From the NCBI GenBank assembly GCA_947085185.1, contig CAMTVK010000014.1:1-55005 (forward strand): a stretch of 55,005 nt of DNA, in the 5' to 3' direction. This stretch comes from Candidatus Fraserbacteria bacterium (lineage in GTDB: Bacteria; Bipolaricaulota; Bipolaricaulia; RBG-16-55-9; DRXL01). Within the stretch, counting starts at the first letter, position 1, and the number at the start of each line of letters is the position of its first letter. Positions 1 through 33,113 of the stretch are shown in pieces. The notes under the pieces were generated by a model. It worked only from the letters and a program-made list of their open reading frames with translations, ran no database searches and was not told where the DNA came from. The position numbers and the translations under genes are program-made.

Positions 1-101
1 GGTCTGTCCGTCAAGAATTGACCGACGACCAGAGCGCCAAAGGTAACATGGCCCAGGTCAATAGACTTCTCGGCGAAGACCTCACGCTGTTTCGGATTCA
101 T
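1..101 (-). CDS. Small hydrophobic hypothetical protein, running off the window edge
   Basis: ATG at 101 preceded by GGGAG and TATACT; reads MNPKQREVFAEKSIDLGHVTFGALVVGQFLTDR, open to the edge. Confidence 0.55.
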   Translation of the reverse strand, partial: MNPKQREVFAEKSIDLGHVTFGALVVGQFLTDR

Positions 102-138
102 CGCTCCCTAGTATAGCACACGCGTAACAGCCAAGCTA

Positions 139-222
139 GAACCACGGAGCACACGGAATCAGCCACGGAAAGCACGGAAGCGCTGTTCTTCCGTGCCCTC
201 CGTGGGACACTTCCGTGCCGTG
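139..222. repeat. CACGGA/TCCGTG multi-unit palindromic repeat, copy 1
   Basis: Four CACGGA units then four (T)CCGTG units; 139-178 matches the reverse complement of 13691-13730 at 35/40 nt. Confidence 0.8.
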
Positions 223-232
223 ATGCAAACCA

Positions 233-270
233 CCCTCTCCCTTGAAAGGGAGAGGGCCGGGGTGAGGGTG
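233..270. repeat. REP-like hairpin CCCTCTCCC..GGGAGAGGG..GGTGAG
   Basis: ccctctccct-tgaa-agggagaggg stem followed by ggggtgaggg; related element at 1415-1467. Confidence 0.6.
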
Positions 271-310
271 AAAAAACAACCGCCCCCGCGGGAGTCTTCC
301 CACGGGGGCG
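270..310 (-). terminator. Intrinsic terminator after the RTX-repeat gene
   Basis: GC-rich stem cgcccccgcggga/tcccacgggggcg followed by a T-tract on the minus strand. Confidence 0.7.
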
Positions 311-342
311 CCCAAGTCCGTCATTAAGCCAAATACAAACTA

Positions 343-1332
343 CTAATTGACCTGCTCGCAGTTTACTGTGGTGATCCCAGTATTGCCGTTAAGGTTGACC
401 GTGTCATTCCCTGGGCCACAGTCAATGATGTCAGCACCGGCGTTGTTGTCGCCGTTATTGTCAACATTGATCTCGTCATCCCCCGGCCCGGCGAAGACCC
501 GGTCACTAACATCACTTTGGGCGTTCAAATTGATGGTGTCATCGCCAGCATCGCCGTAGATGATGTCGCTGCCCTCGCCGTCGGCGATGATGTCATCGCC
601 CGTGCCGCCACGGATCGTGTCATTGCCATCACCGCCGTCGATGTTGTCATCGCCAATACTGCCGAAGATGACGTCATTGCCCGCGCCGCCACGGATCGTG
701 TCATTGCCCGTGCCGCCGTTGATCCAATCATTGCCATCGCCACCGCAGATCGGGTTATCATCGCCTGGGCCACCATCAATGAAGTCGTTGCCCGCTTCTT
801 CGCCAGCTTCGCAGTTTCCGTCATTATTGTCGTTGCCGATGATGTCATTGCCATCGCCGCCGCTGAGGGTGTCGTTGCCGGCGCCACCGCCGACCTCGTC
901 ATCCCCAGCGCCGCCGGAAACACGGTCATTGCCCGCGCCGCCGCGTAGGTCCATGACATCAGCTGTATTATCAGCATTATCACTGTCAGCGCCGCCGTCG
1001 ATGGTGTCATTGCCATCGCCGCCGTCGATGTCGTCTTGGCCAGCTTCCCCAAAGAGCCGATCGTGGCCCAGACAGCCATAAATTTCGTCATCGCCCGCGC
1101 CGCCACGGATCAAATCATTGCCCCCGCTGGTGGTGGCACAAGAACCACCGGATTCATCACCAATAATAGTGTCGTCGCCACCAAAGCCGTTGATGACATC
1201 GTTCCCTGTGGTGCCATTCAATGTGTCGTTGCCACTAGTGCCGTTGATGACGGCGGCATAGACAAAGAAGAAGACCCCCACTATAGCCATGAGCCCAAGG
1301 CTCACCAGCCCGATGATGCGCTTATTTCCCAT
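343..1332 (-). CDS. Exported Ca-binding protein made of hemolysin-type (RTX) GGxGxD nonapeptide repeats
   Basis: AAGGAGG RBS; N-terminal signal/anchor; many GGxGND repeats; C-terminal DCGPGND..NCE. Confidence 0.9.
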   Translation of the reverse strand: MGNKRIIGLVSLGLMAIVGVFFFVYAAVINGTSGNDTLNGTTGNDVINGFGGDDTIIGDESGGSCATTSGGNDLIRGGAGDDEIYGCLGHDRLFGEAGQDDIDGGDGNDTIDGGADSDNADNTADVMDLRGGAGNDRVSGGAGDDEVGGGAGNDTLSGGDGNDIIGNDNNDGNCEAGEEAGNDFIDGGPGDDNPICGGDGNDWINGGTGNDTIRGGAGNDVIFGSIGDDNIDGGDGNDTIRGGTGDDIIADGEGSDIIYGDAGDDTINLNAQSDVSDRVFAGPGDDEINVDNNGDNNAGADIIDCGPGNDTVNLNGNTGITTVNCEQVN

Positions 1333-1367
1333 TACTTCTGCCTCCTTTTCTGTTGAAGATGTCCCGA

Positions 1368-1396
1368 ATTATACAATCCATCTTGCCCAAAGTCAA
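1368..1396 (-). promoter_or_regulatory. Sigma70-type promoter for the RTX gene
   Basis: TTGACT-17 nt-TATAAT on the minus strand. Confidence 0.75.
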
Positions 1397-1414
1397 GTGG
1401 CGCTTGTTACATTT

Positions 1415-1467
1415 TCTCACCCACAAAACCCCCTCCCCCATGTAGGGAGAGGGGGTCTTGGGTGAGA
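1415..1467. terminator. Long REP-like hairpin / terminator after the beta-helix gene
   Basis: Imperfect inverted repeat tctcaccca..ccccctcccc / gggagaggggg..tgggtgaga just past the stop codon. Confidence 0.65.
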
Positions 1468-1473
1468 TTCCGT

Positions 1474-4400
1474 TTACCGTAACACCACGAGCTTGCTGAT
1501 CTTGCTTGTGATCGTCTGGCCGTCGGCACCCTGCACCGTCACTACGTACAGATAGACGCCGTTGGCCAGCTCCGCAGCGGCCGAGAACGGCACGACGTTG
1601 CCCTGAGCGGTCTCGTTGAAGACGAGCTTGCCGCTCATGGAGAAGACGCGCACCGTCGTCTGGGCGATCCCGACGCCCTCGACTACAAAGTACGCGCCGG
1701 AGCTGCGCACCGGGCTCTGCGAGAGCGTGATCGCCTTCACGGCCAACGCCACCGGCGCACCCAGCACCTCGATAGTGATGGGCTGCAGCTCGGCCTCGAT
1801 GCCCGGGACGGCAGCCTTGACCCGCCCGGCGATCGTGTAGACGCCCGGGCCGGCCGTGGCCGGAACGGTCACCTGATAGCTGAGCGTGACCGTGCCCTTG
1901 GCGTTGAGCCACAGCCACTTGTTCTCCGAGGCCTTGTAGTACGCGCCGCTCATCTGGACGGGCTTGGCCGACCAGCCCATCGGCAGCGCCTGGCTGAGCA
2001 AGAGCCCGCTGACGCCGTCCTTGGCGTCCACCGTCACGGTCACGGTGAAGGACTCACCGGGGCGGACGGTGCGCACGCTCGAGGCGAGCGTGGCGAACGC
2101 GGGCGCCGCGCTCAAAGCAGCGCTCTGCGCCGTGAACTTGCCACCGAGCGGCACGGTGAGCTGGCTGCCCTTCACCCACAGGTCGATCAGCTGGATGATC
2201 TGGGCATCGCTGATCTTCATAGCGGGGCTGCAGCCGGGGACATCGCCGTTCTTGACCCACAGGTCAATCGCGGTGATGATCTCGCCGTCGTCCAGAACTT
2301 TGTTCTTGTTGGTGTCCAGGGCGAACGGCAGGCATGTTGCCGGACCGGCCACGTTCACCGTGAGGTTCCTGGTGCTGCCGGAGGGCTGCGCCGTGACCGT
2401 CACGGTGTAGGTGCCGGAGGTCTGGAAGATGAAGCTGAAGACCTCTTCGCGGCTGCCCGCGGGGTTGACCGTGATCTGGCGGCTGGACTGGTTGACCACG
2501 TTGCCCAGGCCGTCCTTGATCACGACGATCACTTCTTGGGTGCCCTCTTCGGTGCCGTTGTTCTTGATAGAGTACCGGAACGTCACGGGGTCGCCCACGT
2601 TGACGTCGGTCTTGTCCGCGGTCAGGTTCTCCACGACGAAGTCGGTCTCGGTTGGGACCTTCGGCTCGCCGGAGAACGGCCGATACTTGACCTTCTGGCT
2701 GACGCGGTCGCCGATGCCGCCCGGATTGTCAGCGGCTTTGGGGCCGCTTGGCTCGCCCCACCAGTTGTTGGTGGCGTCGAACTCCTCGCCCGGAGCGAGC
2801 GCCGACGCATCAACGCCGAACTGCTCGTTGCGGGCGATGTTGTTGTCGTTGGCCTTGGAGCCCGCGGCCTTGTGCACCAAGATACCCACGGCGTTGTTGC
2901 GGATGTCGTTGCCGGAGATCGTGGTGTTAGAGGCCTTGAGCTGGATGCCAACGCCCGCGCCGTTCTTGCCTACGATCTTGTTGTCGGTCACCGACAGGTC
3001 GCTGCCGCGCTGCACGGCCTCGATGTAGACGCCGATGCCGTTGCCGGAGAGCTTGTTCTTGGTCACCGTGCCCTTGATCAGGTCGCGACCGGCGAAGAGC
3101 GAGACGCCCTCCTTGATATTGTCATTAGCTGTGTTGTTCTCGACCGTGATGCCTTGAGCGATCTGCCGTCCCGCCGCACCGACGCGGATACCAGCGTAGT
3201 TGCTGTTCGCTTGGTTCGAGCGGACGACGATGTTGCTCAGGTCCTCGTTGGCGTTCACTTGGACGCCGTCGCCCACGGTGTCGCGGTTGCGGTCGTTCCC
3301 GGAGAACTCGCTGTTCTTGATCGTGACGTTGCTGACGTTGCGGTTCCCGGTGACCTGGACGCCGTGGTCGTTGTTGGTGTTGGCTTTGGTCGGGTCAACG
3401 GTCACGTTGCGGACGGAGTCACCGGCAACCAAGATGCCCGAGCCGCGCCCGATTGCGCCACGCGTGCCGTTGAAGCTGAACGTGTTGTCCTTGACCTGGA
3501 TGTTATCAATATCCCCGGCCGTGACGGCCGCAGCTTCAGGCTTAGGGCCAGCGCTGGCGTCGGACTCCAGCCGCAGGCCGAAGGTGCCGTTGCCGTTTGC
3601 GATCGTGTTCGTGACCGTGATCATGCTGATGTCGCCGTTATCGGTGATCAGCCCGATCCCGTCGCCGTTGTCCCCAACGTCATAGTCATTGGCGAGGGCG
3701 AACCCGATCCCGGGCGCACCTTGGCTCTCCAGCGAGATGACGTTTGTGAAGGTGACCTCGCGGATGTCACCGGAGCGGTTGGCAGCTACATCCGTATCGG
3801 TTTCGAGGCGGAAGCCGCCGAGGAAGTTCCGGGTGGCCGTCTCGCTCTCGAACTTGATCCGGCCGATCTCCGCCCGCTCCACTCGCATGAAGACCCCGAA
3901 GCCGAGGCCGGAGCTACCGGCAGTCGACTCCGTTAAGGCTAGACCAGCGTTGTTCCCGCCGTTCTCGCGGTAGTCGTTCCCGCTGAAGGCGATGTCTTCG
4001 ATGCGGAAGCCGTTGGTGGCAGCGTCGCCGGTGATCGTATTATCGTGATAGACGCCGAAGCCGTCGCCATACGGCGCTTCAGCAACGCTGTTGATGTAGT
4101 CGCCCACACCGTTGTTGTGGAACTTGTTGTTGGTGACGGTGGAGCGGCTGAAGTCGCCGCGGTTGGCGATGCAGACGCCGTTGTTGAAGTTCTGGCGGAA
4201 GTCGTTGCCGTCCAGAGTCAGGTTCTCGATCCGCCCGCCGACCTCCATGCCCAGGCCGTTCCCGTGGCGGCAGGTATCAAGCCGGCCGTTACCATCAAGG
4301 TCGGCGGCAGCAGCGGGCGGGAAGGTGCCGTCCCAGCCGCGGTTGCTGTTGATCGCGTTGTTGACGATCTTCATCTCGCGGACTTCGCTCACCCGACCCG

Positions 4401-5511
4401 TGATGTAAATGCCGTTACCCTCAGCACCACCCGCAACCACAGCCGGGCCGTTGTGGGTGATCCCTTGATCAATAGTAACGCCGCGGTTGTTGCTGATCGT
4501 CACGTTCTCGCCCAATCGCCCGGCATAGTCGAACTTGATGCCGTTCTGGGTGTTGAACTGGATCAGGTTCCGATCGATCAGCGCGTCGCGGATCTCGGTT
4601 AGAGTATTGCCGGACAAGAGGTCATTGTTGAACAGGATGCCATCTCCGAATCCTGCCGCGGTTGTTCCAGCACGATAGATTTCGTTGTTGAGGATCGCGA
4701 GCTGCTCGATCGAGGTGTTGTTGTAGAAGTGGATGTTAGCAAAAGTGCCAGGAGCTACCCTAGGAGCCGCCCCAACTATGGGCGCACCATTACCATTGTC
4801 ATCGAAGAGGTTGCCGTCAATGACGACATTGCGATCCTGTCCACGCCGCCCGATCGCGCCGACGGTGTTGTCGAACGCCAGTCCGTCTCCGCCGTTATTG
4901 CGGATCTCATTCTTCAAGATGCGGATGGTGTCGATCGAGGTAACAACGCCATAGGTGAACAGGATGCCCTCGTTCACGTTCTGACGGAGCGTGTTGTTCT
5001 GGATCGTGATGTTCTCGACCGCTGCAGCGCCACCGGCGGCGACCACAACGCAGGTCGCGTTGGCCGGATCGGTGACGCAGATGCCTACACCACCACCAGG
5101 CGCAGGATTCGTGATCGTGAACCCCTGGTCCTTTGCAGGCCCACCGACGGTGACCCCGCGGTTGACGATGTTAACGAGGCCGCCAGCATAACCACCGGTG
5201 AACGTAATGATCGTGGCAGTCGCGCCGTTCGTGGACCGCAACGTCAGGTTCTCAATTACGATATCTGCCGGGGCACCGGGTATGGATAGATCATAAGTCC
5301 CGGGGAAGACGACGCAGGTATCGCCGGCCGCGGCGACCTTGCCTGCATCCGGCCCGGCTGCCAGTGCTACACCCGTAACGCAGTTCACCAGGTCAGCAGC
5401 GGTCGTGACCCGCAACTCCTTGGCGAACGCGTCCACAGCCGTTCCGATCAGAATAAACGCCAATACAGCGATGATAACCGTCCGCAAGTTCGGAGCCTTG
5501 CTCAACTTCAA
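1474..5511 (-). CDS. Large secreted protein: parallel beta-helix repeats, CARDB-like Ig domain, dockerin-like module, Ig/cohesin-like domain, T9SS type-A-like CTD
   Basis: AAGGAGG 6 nt before TTG 5511 (ATG 5580 is an alternative); signal peptide ending AFA; N/G-rich PbH1-like repeats; NNWWG motif; ends LANGVYLYVV..SKLVVLR. Confidence 0.85.
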   Translation of the reverse strand: MKLSKAPNLRTVIIAVLAFILIGTAVDAFAKELRVTTAADLVNCVTGVALAAGPDAGKVAAAGDTCVVFPGTYDLSIPGAPADIVIENLTLRSTNGATATIITFTGGYAGGLVNIVNRGVTVGGPAKDQGFTITNPAPGGGVGICVTDPANATCVVVAAGGAAAVENITIQNNTLRQNVNEGILFTYGVVTSIDTIRILKNEIRNNGGDGLAFDNTVGAIGRRGQDRNVVIDGNLFDDNGNGAPIVGAAPRVAPGTFANIHFYNNTSIEQLAILNNEIYRAGTTAAGFGDGILFNNDLLSGNTLTEIRDALIDRNLIQFNTQNGIKFDYAGRLGENVTISNNRGVTIDQGITHNGPAVVAGGAEGNGIYITGRVSEVREMKIVNNAINSNRGWDGTFPPAAAADLDGNGRLDTCRHGNGLGMEVGGRIENLTLDGNDFRQNFNNGVCIANRGDFSRSTVTNNKFHNNGVGDYINSVAEAPYGDGFGVYHDNTITGDAATNGFRIEDIAFSGNDYRENGGNNAGLALTESTAGSSGLGFGVFMRVERAEIGRIKFESETATRNFLGGFRLETDTDVAANRSGDIREVTFTNVISLESQGAPGIGFALANDYDVGDNGDGIGLITDNGDISMITVTNTIANGNGTFGLRLESDASAGPKPEAAAVTAGDIDNIQVKDNTFSFNGTRGAIGRGSGILVAGDSVRNVTVDPTKANTNNDHGVQVTGNRNVSNVTIKNSEFSGNDRNRDTVGDGVQVNANEDLSNIVVRSNQANSNYAGIRVGAAGRQIAQGITVENNTANDNIKEGVSLFAGRDLIKGTVTKNKLSGNGIGVYIEAVQRGSDLSVTDNKIVGKNGAGVGIQLKASNTTISGNDIRNNAVGILVHKAAGSKANDNNIARNEQFGVDASALAPGEEFDATNNWWGEPSGPKAADNPGGIGDRVSQKVKYRPFSGEPKVPTETDFVVENLTADKTDVNVGDPVTFRYSIKNNGTEEGTQEVIVVIKDGLGNVVNQSSRQITVNPAGSREEVFSFIFQTSGTYTVTVTAQPSGSTRNLTVNVAGPATCLPFALDTNKNKVLDDGEIITAIDLWVKNGDVPGCSPAMKISDAQIIQLIDLWVKGSQLTVPLGGKFTAQSAALSAAPAFATLASSVRTVRPGESFTVTVTVDAKDGVSGLLLSQALPMGWSAKPVQMSGAYYKASENKWLWLNAKGTVTLSYQVTVPATAGPGVYTIAGRVKAAVPGIEAELQPITIEVLGAPVALAVKAITLSQSPVRSSGAYFVVEGVGIAQTTVRVFSMSGKLVFNETAQGNVVPFSAAAELANGVYLYVVTVQGADGQTITSKISKLVVLR

Positions 5512-5595
5512 TTCGTACCTCCTTCTCTCTTTGGTGTCGAGTTGCTTTGCCGATAATGATGGAAACATGGCCGTTAACATGGTCTCGTACCCCTC

Positions 5596-6525
5596 TTACT
5601 GTGCGCCACCGAAGCTGAACGAAGCCGAGAGCACGATGGTGTCACTGGCACCCTCGCCCACGATCATGTTGTTCTGCAGCCACGCAAAGTCTACACCGAG
5701 CGTGCCCAATGCCAAGCCGGCACCCACGGTGAGCGCGAACTGCTCGCTGCCCGCAGGACGCACCGCCCCGGCGCGCACCGCCAAGGGCCCAATGCCCCGA
5801 AACTCCGCACCGGCACGGATCGCCATCTCCCCGCCGGCATAGAGGTCCACGCCCGCCGCCAACGTAAAGTCCGGCGAGAGCGCAAACCCAAACCCCACAC
5901 GGAAGAGCTGGTCTACTACCCCGACCGAGCCGGTGGACCACGTTACTCTGGTGCCGCCGATATCGTAGGCCGCTGCACCGATGCTCAGCCCGGGGATCAG
6001 CCCGTCAATGAGCAGCCCGCCGTCAAACCCAAACCCGGTAGCGGTCTCGTCCAGCAGCGTCTGGCTGTAGTACTTGCCGGCGCCACCGACGACGACGCTC
6101 AGGCCGTTGAGCGGCACAGGGAACGCCCCGCAGAGCGCCCCAAGCAGCTCGGTGTTGCTGCCCATCGTCCCGTCAGCAAGCGGGATGTCCGTGATTGAGA
6201 CCAACGAGACGCTCAAGCCCCAGGGCATCCCAAAGAGGGTCCAGGTCGCCCCGGCGAAGCTGTAGTTGATCCCCGCTCCAAAGAGATTCGTGTTCATGCC
6301 GCCGACTTTGATGGACTGATCGGCAGCGGCCTTGGCGACGCCCGCGGCGTTCCAATAGCAACTGGAGTATCCGTCGGCCACGCCGACGAACGCTCCGCCC
6401 ATGGCGAGCGCGCGTGCGTCCACGCCGTTCTTGAAGACTGGGTTGGCTCCCGTCGGCTCTTGGGCCACAGCCGTCAGGCCGGCTAAGAGCACAAGCGCCA
6501 ACGCCAGGATCGCAGTTCGGTTCAT
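5596..6525 (-). CDS. PorV/FadL-superfamily outer-membrane beta-barrel protein
   Basis: AAGGAGG RBS; signal peptide; N-terminal motif GVDARALAMGGAFVGVAD..YWNAAG; amphipathic strands; terminal strand LSASFSF. Confidence 0.8.
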   Translation of the reverse strand: MNRTAILALALVLLAGLTAVAQEPTGANPVFKNGVDARALAMGGAFVGVADGYSSCYWNAAGVAKAAADQSIKVGGMNTNLFGAGINYSFAGATWTLFGMPWGLSVSLVSITDIPLADGTMGSNTELLGALCGAFPVPLNGLSVVVGGAGKYYSQTLLDETATGFGFDGGLLIDGLIPGLSIGAAAYDIGGTRVTWSTGSVGVVDQLFRVGFGFALSPDFTLAAGVDLYAGGEMAIRAGAEFRGIGPLAVRAGAVRPAGSEQFALTVGAGLALGTLGVDFAWLQNNMIVGEGASDTIVLSASFSFGGAQ

Positions 6526-6574
6526 CGTTTGCTTAACCTCCTTATACATTCGTAGTTCTCCCATTAGGGTCTCC

Positions 6575-6602
6575 GCTGGGGCGAGGCGGTCCCCGCCCCA
6601 GC
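6575..6602. terminator. Intergenic GC hairpin (partial terminator or mRNA stabiliser)
   Basis: gctggggcg/cgccccagc 9-bp stem without a U-tract, just after the stop at 6615. Confidence 0.55.
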
Positions 6603-6614
6603 AGATGTGATGCT

Positions 6615-9600
6615 TTAGCGCAAGACCACGAGCTTCATGACCTTGCTCGTCTTGGTCTGCTGGCCCTTGCCCGTTGCCGTGATCATGAACAGATAGACGC
6701 CGTTGCTCACGTCCGAGACGGCCCACTCCAGCGACGCTCCGGCCCTGCTGCCATTAAACACGAGCTGGCCGGACAAGCTGTAGACGCTCACCGAGGTGCG
6801 CTCGATCCCTGAGCCCACCACCTGGAAGGTGACCTTCGTGGTAGCGGGGATTGGGGTCGCTTTGAACTCGCGCACCTCGAACCTGGCCGAGAAGAGCGAG
6901 GCGGTCGCTGGATCTGCGCCGGCGTACTCGGCCTTGAGGGTGTCGCCGTCTTGGGCCTCGATCGTGGCACCGCTGCCGGGCTCGCCCGTGGCGATGGCAT
7001 CGCTGCGGAAGACGCCCGCCTGTGCCGTCTGCCTCACGGTGACTTTGATGGTCTTGACGACCCGGCCCTCGCGCAGCTGGGTCAGCGTGACCGCGTCGAT
7101 GAGCGTGCCGCTGCGATTGGGATCGGTCACTTCTATGAAGAAGGTCTTGCCGATCTCGATCAGGGCGGGGTCGAACCGGACCGTCGGTCTGACCGGCGCT
7201 ACCGGCGGCTCAAAGAGCGGGATGATCCCGATGGACGTGGCCGCGTAGTCTTGAGGGTTATCGGCGGACTGGAAGTGCGCCTCGATGTTGTCGCGATCTT
7301 GCATCTGCAAGATGCCGTCGCCCTTCTTTATCTCATCGGGCAGGCCACGGCGCAGCGGCAACCCCTGCTGGTTCGCAAACAGCCCGGTATTGGGGCCGGT
7401 CTCCTGCAGAGTGACACACTCCTTGTCGCCGGTGTGGCGGTCGAGCACGATCACCGGGACCTGCTCCACTAAATCGGAGCTGAAGTTGAGCGTGGGGTCT
7501 TCTAATTGGACGAAGACGTCCATGCCCACCTTGTACTCGCTGATGGGCCGGCCGGCGTCGTCGACAAAGCGCAGCTTCTTATCGAACTGATCGAACGCAT
7601 AGGGCTTGATCGTCGCGGTGATCGCGATGACGTCGAAGGCGTCGAGGGCGCGCTTGATCTCGTCAATGCTCTCGATCTGGGCGACGTCATCGTCGAAGTA
7701 TGTCGCATAGATGACGTCGTCGCGTGCGACCGCGAGCTTGCCGTCGTTCTGCTCGTCCACCGTTGGGGTGAAGATGACCTCCGGGCCCTTGCCGAAGACC
7801 GTTAAGTCATCGGGGGTGGGGCAGGAGGCGACGGCCTTGGGGACGATCCTCAGCGGGCCGGGGTTTCTGAAGACGCCGGTGTTGACGCCCGTCTCGGTGA
7901 GGACTTCGAGTTCTTGGCCGCCGTTGACGTCGAAGATCATGACCACGACGCGCTCGACTCTATCGGAGTCGGCATTCTGGTCGCGGTCCTCGACTTGGAC
8001 GAAGACGTCCTCGCCGATCCTCAGCTCCGTCTTCTCGCGTCCCGTCGCATCGGTGAAGGAGATGCGGGCCGGGTTGCGATGGGCGACCTTGACCTGAGCG
8101 ACTGCGAAGTCATGGGGATCGTTGATGTCGCCCATGCCGAGCATCGCTGCGGGGACGGCCCCCACGGTGAAGCTCGAGCTGACGGTCACCGGGGCCTGAG
8201 CGCCCGCGGCCGTCACGGGAGTGACCGTGCCGGTGATGGTCACGGGCCCCTCAGGACAGGTGAGCTTATAGGTATGCTCGAAGGACTGCCCCGGGTTGAG
8301 CGGGCTGATCGTGCCCGCTTTGGAGACGGTCCCGCCCACGAGCGTGCAGCCATCAACGTTATCGTTGACGAGCAAGGCGCGCAGCGCTTGCTTGGCCGTG
8401 ACTTTCACCTTGACGGTGAACTCTTTGTTGGCAGCGATGACATCGGGGATGTCGCGGCTGACCGTCACCAACGGCGATTCGACGGTGGTGACTTTCAGCT
8501 CGGCGAACGCGCTCGCTCCCGAAGCAGCAGCAACTTCAATGTTCGATGTCCACGTGACGGTATCGGCCACGCCTGCTGCGGTAGCTGGGGTCGCCGAACC
8601 GGTGATGGCGAACCTTCCGGGAGCGGCTCCCGCGCGCACTCTGTACTTGATCTCGAACTTCTGGCCTGGGGCCAGCGGGCTGATCGTGCCGCCGCGGGTG
8701 TCACCGGTGACGGTGAACGCCGGATCGGGCCGATCGCTGATGATCAGTGCCGTCAGCGGCTGCTTGGCCGTACACCGCACGGTGATCTCGCTCTCTTGTC
8801 CGGGGTTCAGGCGCACCGGCACGACGCGCTCACAGCGGATCAGCGCGCTCTCGCCGACGTCGGTGCGGGTGCCTGTTGGTGGTGGTATTGTTACTGGAAC
8901 GAAGCCCGCCGGCACCTGATAGAACGCCAGGATCGTATCTTTATCGAGAGCTTCGAACTCGGTGGCGCCCAGAGAGCGTCCCTTGTTCTTGGGGTCCACG
9001 AGGACGATACCGTCTACATTTCTGAAGACGCCCGTGTCCGGGCCGGTCTCCACGAGCGTCAGCTCCAAGCTCTGCTTGGTGCGCGCGTTGACCAAGGTGG
9101 CCTTGACCGTCTCGATAGTGGTAGGGCTGGTGTTCTCATCCGCGTCGGTGACCGTGACGAAGATCGTGCGGCCGATATTCGTCACGCTGATCGGATTCCC
9201 ACCAGCATCGGTAATAGAGATGATAGCGCGAGCGCGAGTGCCCGGCGTGGTGCCGGTATAAATCTTGCCCAGATAAATGCTGATGTCGTTGGGGTTGGTG
9301 GGGTCTTGATAGCGCACGAAGATCGTGTCGGTGTCGAAGACTTGCAGCTGGAGGTCTCCGGCGTTGACGGGCTGACCGAGCATCGCCTTGGTGATGAGAA
9401 TGCCGGTCTGGCTCCGGAAGACCCCAGTGTTTGTGCCCGTCTCTTGCAAGACCAACCCGCTCATGCTGCTGACGTGATCCCCGCTGACCATTCCCGGGTA
9501 GTCCGGGCACGGCCCGGCACAGACTTGCACCACGGGGACCTCGTCCCCCAACTGGGTCACTAAGCTGCCTTGGAGGAACTCGACCTCGTCCGAATCACGG

Positions 9601-9797
9601 TTCTCATCAGGATCGATCACCGTGAGGAACATCGTCTCGCCCACGCGCCAATATTGCTTGGGCGTCCCGTTAATATCCGTGAGAAGAACCTGGCCCTTAC
9701 TGGCCAGCGCTGCTGGAGCCATCGCGGTGACGCCCACAATCAAGGCGATCACGGCGATCAAGCTCGCCACCTGTACTCTGCTCTTCTTCACTTGCAT
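6615..9797 (-). CDS. Probable S-layer-like surface protein: five ETGxNTGxF-type Ig repeats, two inserted Ig/cohesin-like domains, T9SS type-A-like CTD
   Basis: AAGGAGG RBS; signal peptide; ETGTNTGVF, ETGPDTGVF, ETGVNTGVF, ETGPNTGLF plus one degenerate copy; ends VSNGVYLFMI..MKLVVLR. Confidence 0.8.
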   Translation of the reverse strand: MQVKKSRVQVASLIAVIALIVGVTAMAPAALASKGQVLLTDINGTPKQYWRVGETMFLTVIDPDENRDSDEVEFLQGSLVTQLGDEVPVVQVCAGPCPDYPGMVSGDHVSSMSGLVLQETGTNTGVFRSQTGILITKAMLGQPVNAGDLQLQVFDTDTIFVRYQDPTNPNDISIYLGKIYTGTTPGTRARAIISITDAGGNPISVTNIGRTIFVTVTDADENTSPTTIETVKATLVNARTKQSLELTLVETGPDTGVFRNVDGIVLVDPKNKGRSLGATEFEALDKDTILAFYQVPAGFVPVTIPPPTGTRTDVGESALIRCERVVPVRLNPGQESEITVRCTAKQPLTALIISDRPDPAFTVTGDTRGGTISPLAPGQKFEIKYRVRAGAAPGRFAITGSATPATAAGVADTVTWTSNIEVAAASGASAFAELKVTTVESPLVTVSRDIPDVIAANKEFTVKVKVTAKQALRALLVNDNVDGCTLVGGTVSKAGTISPLNPGQSFEHTYKLTCPEGPVTITGTVTPVTAAGAQAPVTVSSSFTVGAVPAAMLGMGDINDPHDFAVAQVKVAHRNPARISFTDATGREKTELRIGEDVFVQVEDRDQNADSDRVERVVVMIFDVNGGQELEVLTETGVNTGVFRNPGPLRIVPKAVASCPTPDDLTVFGKGPEVIFTPTVDEQNDGKLAVARDDVIYATYFDDDVAQIESIDEIKRALDAFDVIAITATIKPYAFDQFDKKLRFVDDAGRPISEYKVGMDVFVQLEDPTLNFSSDLVEQVPVIVLDRHTGDKECVTLQETGPNTGLFANQQGLPLRRGLPDEIKKGDGILQMQDRDNIEAHFQSADNPQDYAATSIGIIPLFEPPVAPVRPTVRFDPALIEIGKTFFIEVTDPNRSGTLIDAVTLTQLREGRVVKTIKVTVRQTAQAGVFRSDAIATGEPGSGATIEAQDGDTLKAEYAGADPATASLFSARFEVREFKATPIPATTKVTFQVVGSGIERTSVSVYSLSGQLVFNGSRAGASLEWAVSDVSNGVYLFMITATGKGQQTKTSKVMKLVVLR

Positions 9798-32502: not shown

Positions 32503-32595
32503 GGAGGGGTACTCAAGTGGTCGAAGAGGACGGATTGCTAATCCGTTGTAGGGGCTAAACCTCTACCGTGGGTTCGAATCCCACCCCCTCCGCCA
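32503..32595 (+). tRNA. tRNA-Ser(GCT)
   Basis: Anticodon arm acgga-ttGCTaa-tccgt; long variable arm; GCCA end. Confidence 0.95.
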
Positions 32596-32641
32596 CCAGA
32601 CTTCGTCTGGACTGTTTGCCGTGCCGCCTCTGGCGGCACGA
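32596..32641. repeat. tRNA-flanking palindromic element
   Basis: ccagacttcgtctgg plus cgtgccgcc-tct-ggcggcacg; inverted homolog at 38748-38794. Confidence 0.8.
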
Positions 32642-32666
32642 TGTATCTAGTAGGGAGTGTGCAACC

Positions 32667-33113
32667 GTGCAGAGAATGTCTGTTGTTATAGGGCTTATCG
32701 TTCTTGGCACTCTTGTGCTTTCTGGCTGCGAGCTGCTCGCACCGCCGGTGCAGACCAAGCCGCGCACCGACATGGTCGAGAACGATCTGATAGAATTCAG
32801 CCGCACCGTGCTCACGCCACTTCGGCCCGGCCAAAAGTTCACGGTCTCTGTGAAGGTCACGGCAAAAGTCGATCTCAGAGTAGTTCTGATCAGCGAGAAT
32901 TTGCCAGAAGGGTTTGAGCTTACCGAGGGTTCTCAGCTGAAAGCAGCGCAATTGGGCCTAGCCGCCGGGGCGACGCTGGAGCACAACTATACTGTTATAG
33001 CCAGCACCAAAGCGGGATCGTTCACGATCACGGGGAACGCGATTGTCGCCACGGGTGAGGGGACGCAAGAGCCACTCGTGTTAGAATCGCCGGTGCGAGT
33101 GCAGGCTCGCTAA
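32667..33113 (+). CDS. Lipoprotein with a single Ig/cohesin-like domain
   Basis: GGGAG RBS, GTG start, lipobox LSGC; SRT..LRPGQKFTV..ISENLP.GF..Y.V..G.FTITG. Confidence 0.8.
   Translation: MQRMSVVIGLIVLGTLVLSGCELLAPPVQTKPRTDMVENDLIEFSRTVLTPLRPGQKFTVSVKVTAKVDLRVVLISENLPEGFELTEGSQLKAAQLGLAAGATLEHNYTVIASTKAGSFTITGNAIVATGEGTQEPLVLESPVRVQAR

Follow-up and report, generated by a model that had tools for sequence, protein, structure and literature searches.

Module M, a 56-residue helical hairpin, and domain B, a predicted beta-sandwich that follows it in the same protein, probably constitute a docking pair that is dockerin/cohesin-like, orthogonal to and separate from the classical pair, and clips surface proteins together. 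M and B are discrete domains, M has been shuffled onto many secreted proteins, and the two are genetically linked in Bipolaricaulota and in Halobacteria; docking itself is suggested by sequence comparison and predicted folds. New here are B as the candidate partner of M and the haloarchaeal M/B gene pairs.

The host protein and its locus

Both domains lie in a stretch of 55,005 nucleotides (the window) from a Candidatus Fraserbacteria bacterium. They belong to a 1368-residue protein composed, in this order, of a likely signal peptide, a beta-helix, an Ig spacer, M, B, and a T9SS-like C-terminal sorting domain (CTD) (Table 1). By its profile score, the protein marginally carries the type A CTD of a T9SS cargo. 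Homologs bear the source labels Candidatus Bipolaricaulota, Acetothermia, and Fraserbacteria. Across 95 orthologs, the M-B-CTD block is better conserved than the variable beta-helix passenger: median identity was 76% for M, 83% for B, and 89% for the CTD, versus 54 to 68% for the beta-helix.

TABLE 1 Features of the host locus (window coordinates)
Feature	Position	Strand	Remarks
Host ORF	1474..5580	-	Encodes 1368 aa
Right-handed beta-helix passenger	2656..5418	-	PF13229, E 7e-25
Ig-like CARDB/DUF11 spacer, N-terminal to M	2338..2649	-	DUF11 E 8e-7, CARDB E 3e-6
Module M, aa 1083-1138	2167..2334	-	Helix, EF-hand-type loop, helix, hairpin linker, truncated repeat helix
Single predicted Ca2+ loop, D1089-E1100	2281..2316	-	Loop pattern in 44/54 class A members
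Truncated second repeat, I1123-K1137	2170..2214	-	Loop positions 8-12 plus helix; invariant Trp, Asp at position 10
Cys pair C1083/C1117	2230..2334	-	Likely optional disulfide staple
Domain B, aa about 1157-1277, beta-sandwich, candidate receptor of M	1750..2112	-	pLDDT 92.6; M linkage
T9SS-type-A-like CTD	1477..1749	-	TIGR04183, 23.8 bits vs. cut-off 23, marginal
PorV-like beta-barrel gene, directly upstream of host ORF	5596..6726	-	NF033709 E 5e-15, below cut-off
Large CTD protein gene	6615..9797	-	Two short-type B-like domains, 8541-8840 and 8172-8468
RTX-repeat Ca-binding protein gene, downstream of host ORF	343..1332	-	PF00353

The product of the downstream gene consists of RTX nonapeptide repeats and is secreted or anchored. 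In relatives this gene is syntenic, located between the M-B-CTD gene and an M-only beta-helix gene, and the locus comparison showed CTD-less beta-helix-M and X-M genes after it. Among the same-genus relatives, M-only, CTD-less genes come after the M-B-CTD ortholog in five of six; in the sixth, the contig ends. The distant genome G145 has an M-B-CTD gene and four M-only genes on one contig (C40). An approximately 80-bp palindromic intergenic repeat occupies window positions 139 to 219, and copies of it on contigs C1, C7, and C32 often lie near surface-protein genes. Joining the window start to C32, which holds a beta-helix-M gene, was considered and rejected, the shared DNA being a dispersed repeat.

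M is a helical hairpin with one predicted calcium loop

The original prediction for this DNA was a dockerin-like duplicated EF-hand module at positions 2160 to 2336, with a DxNxNxxxDDxE loop, internally repeated helices, and a Cys pair. The motif is present within this span: CLPFALDTNKNKVLDDGEIITAIDLWVKNGDVPGCSPAMKISDAQIIQLIDLWVKG (residues 1083-1138, nt 2334-2167) is the 56-residue module M. The loop was found as D1089-x-N-x-N-x-x-L-D-D-x-E1100 and fits the 12-residue EF-hand pattern, with Lys replacing the usual Gly at position 6. The repeat is real, too: LDDGEIITAIDLWVK and ISDAQIIQLIDLWVK match at an offset of 27 with a BLOSUM62 score of 50, which none of 20,000 shuffles reached, and the Cys residues are C1083 and C1117. 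The designation "duplicated EF-hand," however, was wrong. Positions 1, 3, and 5 of the second copy lack ligands, and because the duplication is limited to loop positions 8 to 12 plus the helix, M has one predicted calcium loop.

M comes in two kinds: class A keeps the calcium loop and tags cargos, and class B, located after a B domain, no longer has the loop ligands. All 54 class A members have E21, W29, and W56, and at least 90% have D10, D18, D19, A25, and D46. Loop position 12 is Glu in all 54, and the pattern D-x-[DN]-x-[DN]-x-x-[LIVM]-[DNSG]-x-x-E is present in 44. The second repeat has W56 in 54/54 and D46 in 52/54, with no ligands at loop positions 1 to 7. Both halves share D10, a hydrophobic residue at 14, D/Q18, W20, and a hydrophobic residue at 21.

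AlphaFold2 modeled M with a mean pLDDT of 92.7 and placed helices at positions 4-9, 19-30, and 46-58 of the 64-aa model. Short variants with a Trp-Trp spacing of 17 (3 of 54 class A members) imply an antiparallel hairpin and not a paired EF-hand. The Cys pair was rejected as a defining feature of M, since it is absent from 41 of the 54 class A members and from 75 of 312 B-M units; in the class A alignment A2, seven members have both residues and six have one only. Within the B-M units the two residues occur together or not at all (both 237, neither 75, single 0), and they form the second-strongest covariation pair (z 11.5). Because of this coupling, C1083 and C1117 are predicted to form a disulfide, likely an optional one. 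We conclude that M is a real helical-hairpin module that is uncatalogued and has a single predicted calcium loop. The literature search, which covered neither subscription papers, supplements, nor InterPro/CDD/SUPERFAMILY models, returned no description of M or B.

M lies outside the dockerin family

Dockerins have two Ca-binding loops with D/N at positions 1, 3, 5, 9, and 12, and each loop is an F-hand, with Asp at position 12 and no entering helix. M shares with them the internal 2-fold repeat of recognition helices. It departs from them in that the second repeat has no loop positions 1 to 7, position 12 is consistently Glu, and the predicted helix 4-9 precedes the loop. As for EF-hands, M has a first canonical 12-residue loop between two helices (44/54 fit) and no paired second helix-loop-helix, there being neither second-loop ligands nor an entering helix. 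EF-hand Pfam models matched weakly in up to 15/54 class A members (EF-hand_7).

Profile searches were in line with this. PF00404 matched none of the 54 members at an E value of ≤1; in the genome scan it gave seven dockerins elsewhere, M not among them. An hhalign comparison with a regex-collected dockerin set, in which 4 of 20 loops were non-dockerin, gave a probability of 10%. The PDB sequence search with M alone yielded no match at an E value of ≤10, a search with the M profile found only EF-hand loops covering profile positions 2 to 26, and NCBIfam gave nothing meaningful. Thus, the claim of a dockerin with 2-fold calcium loops fails on the profile, the hhalign result, the single loop, and the invariant Glu12, and the structural match is weak.

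Structure searches were less clear-cut. Foldseek returned nothing significant for M, its best row being a dockerin at an E value of 1.6. In the VIA comparison, dockerins made up 7 of the top 50 matches (Z 3.0 to 3.7, rmsd 3.1 to 3.6, 45 to 57 residues aligned), tied with unrelated bundles; the best Z, 3.9, belonged to an unrelated DUF910 protein. In the ESM Atlas, which we use for leads only, the top clusters for M had no name (0.92 to 0.93; Hydrogenedentota and Bacteroidota labels), and one match below 0.9 was a Dockerin_1 cluster. The modeled fold thus gives a family-level hint of a dockerin, below a match.

These recurrent dockerins, together with canonical cohesins (PF00963) in four of five genomes tested, could be taken to mean that M belongs to the dockerin family as a divergent member and binds the genome's canonical cohesins on contig C7. 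We find this very improbable in view of the PF00404 and hhalign results, and also because the genome has dockerins of its own and genome G001 has M and B with no PF00963 match. M is therefore outside the dockerin family by membership, and indirect evidence suggests that it may nevertheless be dockerin-like in its working.

Canonical cohesin-dockerin genes and the secretion route

Canonical cohesin, dockerin, and cohesin-dockerin-CTD genes lie beside PorV-like genes on contig C7 of genome G000 (positions 108219-127723; L124, L126, and L130). This cluster is a classical non-cellulosomal system, of which no description was found in the literature searched. The genome has six PorV_fam matches, all below the cut-off (window positions 5596-6726 and contigs C7, C19, and C12), and 14 CTD-like T9SS-type-A domains; two CTD-like domains lie near the N terminus (C6:54046 and C19:28616). 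Searches for SprA/PorU (TIGR04189; PF01364, C25 sortase) remained without a match, and the controls were equally silent.

M is a mobile terminal tag of secreted proteins

An iterated profile found eight M copies in seven proteins of the source genome. M was present in 141 of the 151 genomes of the Bipolaricaulota sample, with 61 matches in G145, 18 in G055, and 2 to 5 per genome outside the source genome's order. Clustering at 50% identity gave 563 clusters of matches, and the 150 best of these were examined. M is located no more than 30 residues from the C terminus or directly before a CTD in the majority of the 151 tabulated proteins, on cargos that include beta-helix, PKD, S8, astacin, and FecR-like proteins. 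According to the original prediction, the host protein docks onto a partner, as part of a non-cellulosomal assembly. The large expansions and the mobile, terminal position of M on diverse secreted cargos favor this claim indirectly.

Other arrangements were also seen. A 99-aa secreted protein (L002:5154-5453) conserved across the genus is roughly a signal peptide plus M; it could be a cap or a competitor for binding sites. Seven tandem paralogs with N-terminal M and variable C-terminal parts are encoded on contig C17 of G145 (L220, positions 1-8856). At L001:2699-4213 (C15), a lipoprotein-M gene continues in frame into IS605 OrfB-like sequence (weak match), probably an insertion at its 3' end.

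Twenty-eight of the 151 tabulated proteins carry a CTD of their own but lack B, and thus need no dock for sorting. Such M-CTD proteins would suit a tag that docks or anchors to a ligand other than B, be it another M, an envelope polymer, the membrane (given the two invariant Trp residues), or an unrecognised receptor, and so would the excess of M over B in G145 (61 versus 9 matches). The haloarchaeal loci described below bear on this possibility.

B is the candidate partner of M

Eleven relatives of B occur in eight proteins of the source genome, and the domain carries a conserved G-A-x-[YF]-K-x4-[EQK]-W motif. Its predicted fold is nearest to CLIPPER and pilin CnaA domains (Z 12.5 to 11.3); cohesins score lower (Z 10 to 11.2), in alignments of 113 to 117 residues. 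Foldseek matched B to a cohesin at an E value of 1.5e-5, with 5n5p at rank 4 (TMq 0.66). PF00963 matched none of 45 B members at an E value of ≤0.1, and its three matches in the genome scan were elsewhere. DUF11 matched weakly in 23/45 members; the window's B reached 18.7 bits (cut-off, 24.6), and some haloarchaeal B domains surpass the cut-off. In CLIPPER domains, the isopeptide residues are a Lys in the first strand and an Asn in the last. At these positions, the edge strands of B have no conserved Lys or Asn. The top ESM Atlas clusters for B had no name (0.93 to 0.96, with recognition below 2300; leads only).

Shorter B-like domains were also encountered. Those of the large CTD protein have no GAxFK..W motif, and neither have the predicted lipoproteins encoded at window positions 32559-33110 (+) and, in G000, at C17:29071-29832 and C5:66229-67083. 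It is possible that these lipoproteins are membrane anchors or an unrelated subfamily.

M and B are linked in Bipolaricaulota

B was also present in 56 of the 151 tabulated M proteins, in the fusion orders B-M, B-M-B-M, M-B-CTD, and M-B-M-CTD, and 312 distinct B-M units were collected. No protein with more than three B domains was seen, which argues against a large scaffoldin. Among six M-negative genomes tested, three (87 to 90% complete) had B without an M match. Mean-field covariation on the 312 units (Neff 158) recovered intradomain pairs and no clear interface; 1 of the 20 top pairs was between B and M (z 4.5).

The missing interdomain signal would suit a scenario in which M and B travel together as surface-protein cassettes or pack in cis as a didomain, M being a Ca2+-stabilized cap or spacer with no binding in trans. 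The dominance of B-M tandems in the phylum core, where genomes outside the source order have 2 to 5 M, fits as well. This scenario is at odds with the existence of both fusion orders and with the occurrence of M alone on dozens of cargos and in the 99-aa protein.

M and B are linked in Halobacteria

We extended the search to 201 genomes of the Halobacteria, the class to which a Natronomonas locus belongs. Of these genomes, 18 had M and 25 had B; both were present in 15, M only in 3, B only in 10, and neither in 173. B was thus present in 15/18 genomes with M versus 10/183 others (odds ratio, 86; P = 1e-13; related genomes do not count as independent). With profiles refined on the loci, B adjoins M in the three "M only" genomes also. 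Several of the ten "B only" matches are visibly other subtypes, and in one such genome (G305) the protein with B also has a weak M. Profile alignment of haloarchaeal M and B with their bacterial counterparts gave a probability of 99%, and a named Haloarcula protein carries B-M.

Twenty loci covering all 22 M matches were fetched. In 17 of them, the next open frame has B among its first 140 residues; in 1, B was fused to M, and in 2 it was not nearby. Eleven of the 17 are cassettes of a large M protein followed by a B protein, and probably descend from one cassette; malectin/PKD domains were present in the two M proteins scanned, and in nine of these loci a B protein has a C-terminal PF00404 match, eight above the cut-off. 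Five of the 17 next-gene B proteins end in a hydrophobic segment (anchor), and four of these have a PGF motif that scores under the PGF-CTERM cut-off; in these anchor-type pairs, four of five M-bearing ORFs have no signal peptide by eye, and the fifth ORF has a long upstream part fused to it. In the seventeenth locus (L191), which may be a split fusion, a single stop separates PKD-M from an in-frame B-propeller. L194 encodes a chain, M followed by B..M and then B-B..dockerin. Separate-gene arrangements were malectin giant plus B..dockerin, CARDB-M plus B-PGF, CARDB-M plus B-Big_9-TM, and PKD-M plus B-propeller.

The docking claim is again favored indirectly, in that M is tightly linked genetically to a single beta-sandwich family across two domains of life. 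The part of the claim that gains is a partner of the B type, following M in the same protein; a canonical cohesin as partner does not. Cassette transfer can also produce gene adjacency. Separate genes for M and B, in at least four arrangements with unrelated flanking domains, nevertheless argue against joint travel or packing in cis, which we judge unlikely. A ligand other than B would agree with the two loci without a nearby B, but it leaves unexplained both the B at the start of the next gene in 17/20 loci and the enrichment of B in M-positive haloarchaea; we regard it as quite unlikely.

A proposed model for M-B docking

In the docking pair that we propose, Ca2+ would order loop 1 of M, and the two near-identical helices (positions 10, 14, 18, and 21 of each repeat) would provide a binding face, possibly usable in either orientation, through which M would bind B in trans. 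Cargos with M alone, the CTD-less beta-helix paralog among them, would dock on the B of anchored proteins, the anchors being the M-B-CTD protein in Bipolaricaulota and B-PGF/TM proteins in haloarchaea. Adaptors or chain links would be provided by proteins that have both domains, and B...dockerin proteins may join the M-B system to the canonical cohesin-dockerin system. Covariation without an interface, the excess of M over B, and the M-CTD proteins lacking B speak against docking of M on B. So do the three Bipolaricaulota genomes with B and no M match, the tie of dockerins with unrelated bundles among the fold matches of M, the greater likeness of B to CLIPPER and pilin CnaA domains than to cohesins, the lack of a visible signal peptide in four of five anchor-type haloarchaeal M ORFs, and the probable descent of eleven haloarchaeal loci from a single cassette.

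Only tentatively do we go further and suggest that Bipolaricaulota and haloarchaea share an M-B ligation system, a second one of the cohesin-dockerin type, that builds branched surface assemblies from anchors (B-PGF, B-CTD), adaptors (B..M, M-B, B..dockerin), and B-M-B-M chain links. Within such assemblies, the nearly phylum-wide B-M-B-M protein could polymerize into part of the Bipolaricaulota envelope, which is unusual, and specificity classes could lie in the choice of F/L or D at loop position 10.

Cohesin-dockerin pairs are a model for modular surface assembly and a protein-engineering tool. If the proposal is true, a second docking pair, missed by Pfam profiles, exists in a mostly uncultured phylum, in 141 of the 151 genomes sampled. 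It would offer a handle on the decoration of the Bipolaricaulota envelope, whose type PMC6092417 leaves unresolved, and M-B also occurs in culturable haloarchaea. A concrete cognate pair is named that is open to a binding assay, and M-B may supply thermo- and halo-stable orthogonal protein connectors.

Comparison with known systems

The first helix-loop-helix of M resembles a canonical EF-hand (PF00036, PF13499) in having D1, N3, N5, D9, and E12, but M has no second helix-loop-helix. B resembles the CnaA-like stalk domain CLIPPER/DUF11 (bioRxiv 10.1101/2025.04.25.650565): its top match is 9ifr (Z 12.5, rmsd 2.3, 111 residues aligned). Unlike the stalk domains, B does not form long tandem stalks and has its own GAxFK..W motif. 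It also differs in that the window's B scores under the DUF11 cut-off and that the first-strand Lys and last-strand Asn are not conserved.

An uncultured lineage, tagged secreted proteins, and a T9SS-like CTD on the partner-bearing protein are also features of the cellulosome-like cohesin/dockerin/CTD system of Ca. Stygibacter (Cloacimonadota; PMC8542988). That system has canonical domains and a 3,755-aa multi-cohesin scaffoldin, whereas M and B are non-canonical and at most three B per protein were seen. A further difference is that the cargos of M are mostly adhesin-like or of unknown kind, and not glycoside hydrolases.

Type I dockerin-cohesin includes non-cellulosomal archaeal pairs, according to PMC9012536. 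M differs from a dockerin in its one Ca loop, the helix entering it, the invariant Trp pair, a repeat spacing of 17 to 31, and Glu12 in place of the Asp12 of dockerins drawn from these genomes, and M and B match neither PF00404 nor PF00963. Like a type I dockerin (PF00404), M has about 60 aa and an internally repeated loop-helix, serves as a terminal tag on secreted cargos, and aligns structurally, if weakly, over its full length. Furthermore, as in dockerin-cohesin systems, its likely partner is a beta-sandwich of related topology, found in anchor and adaptor architectures.
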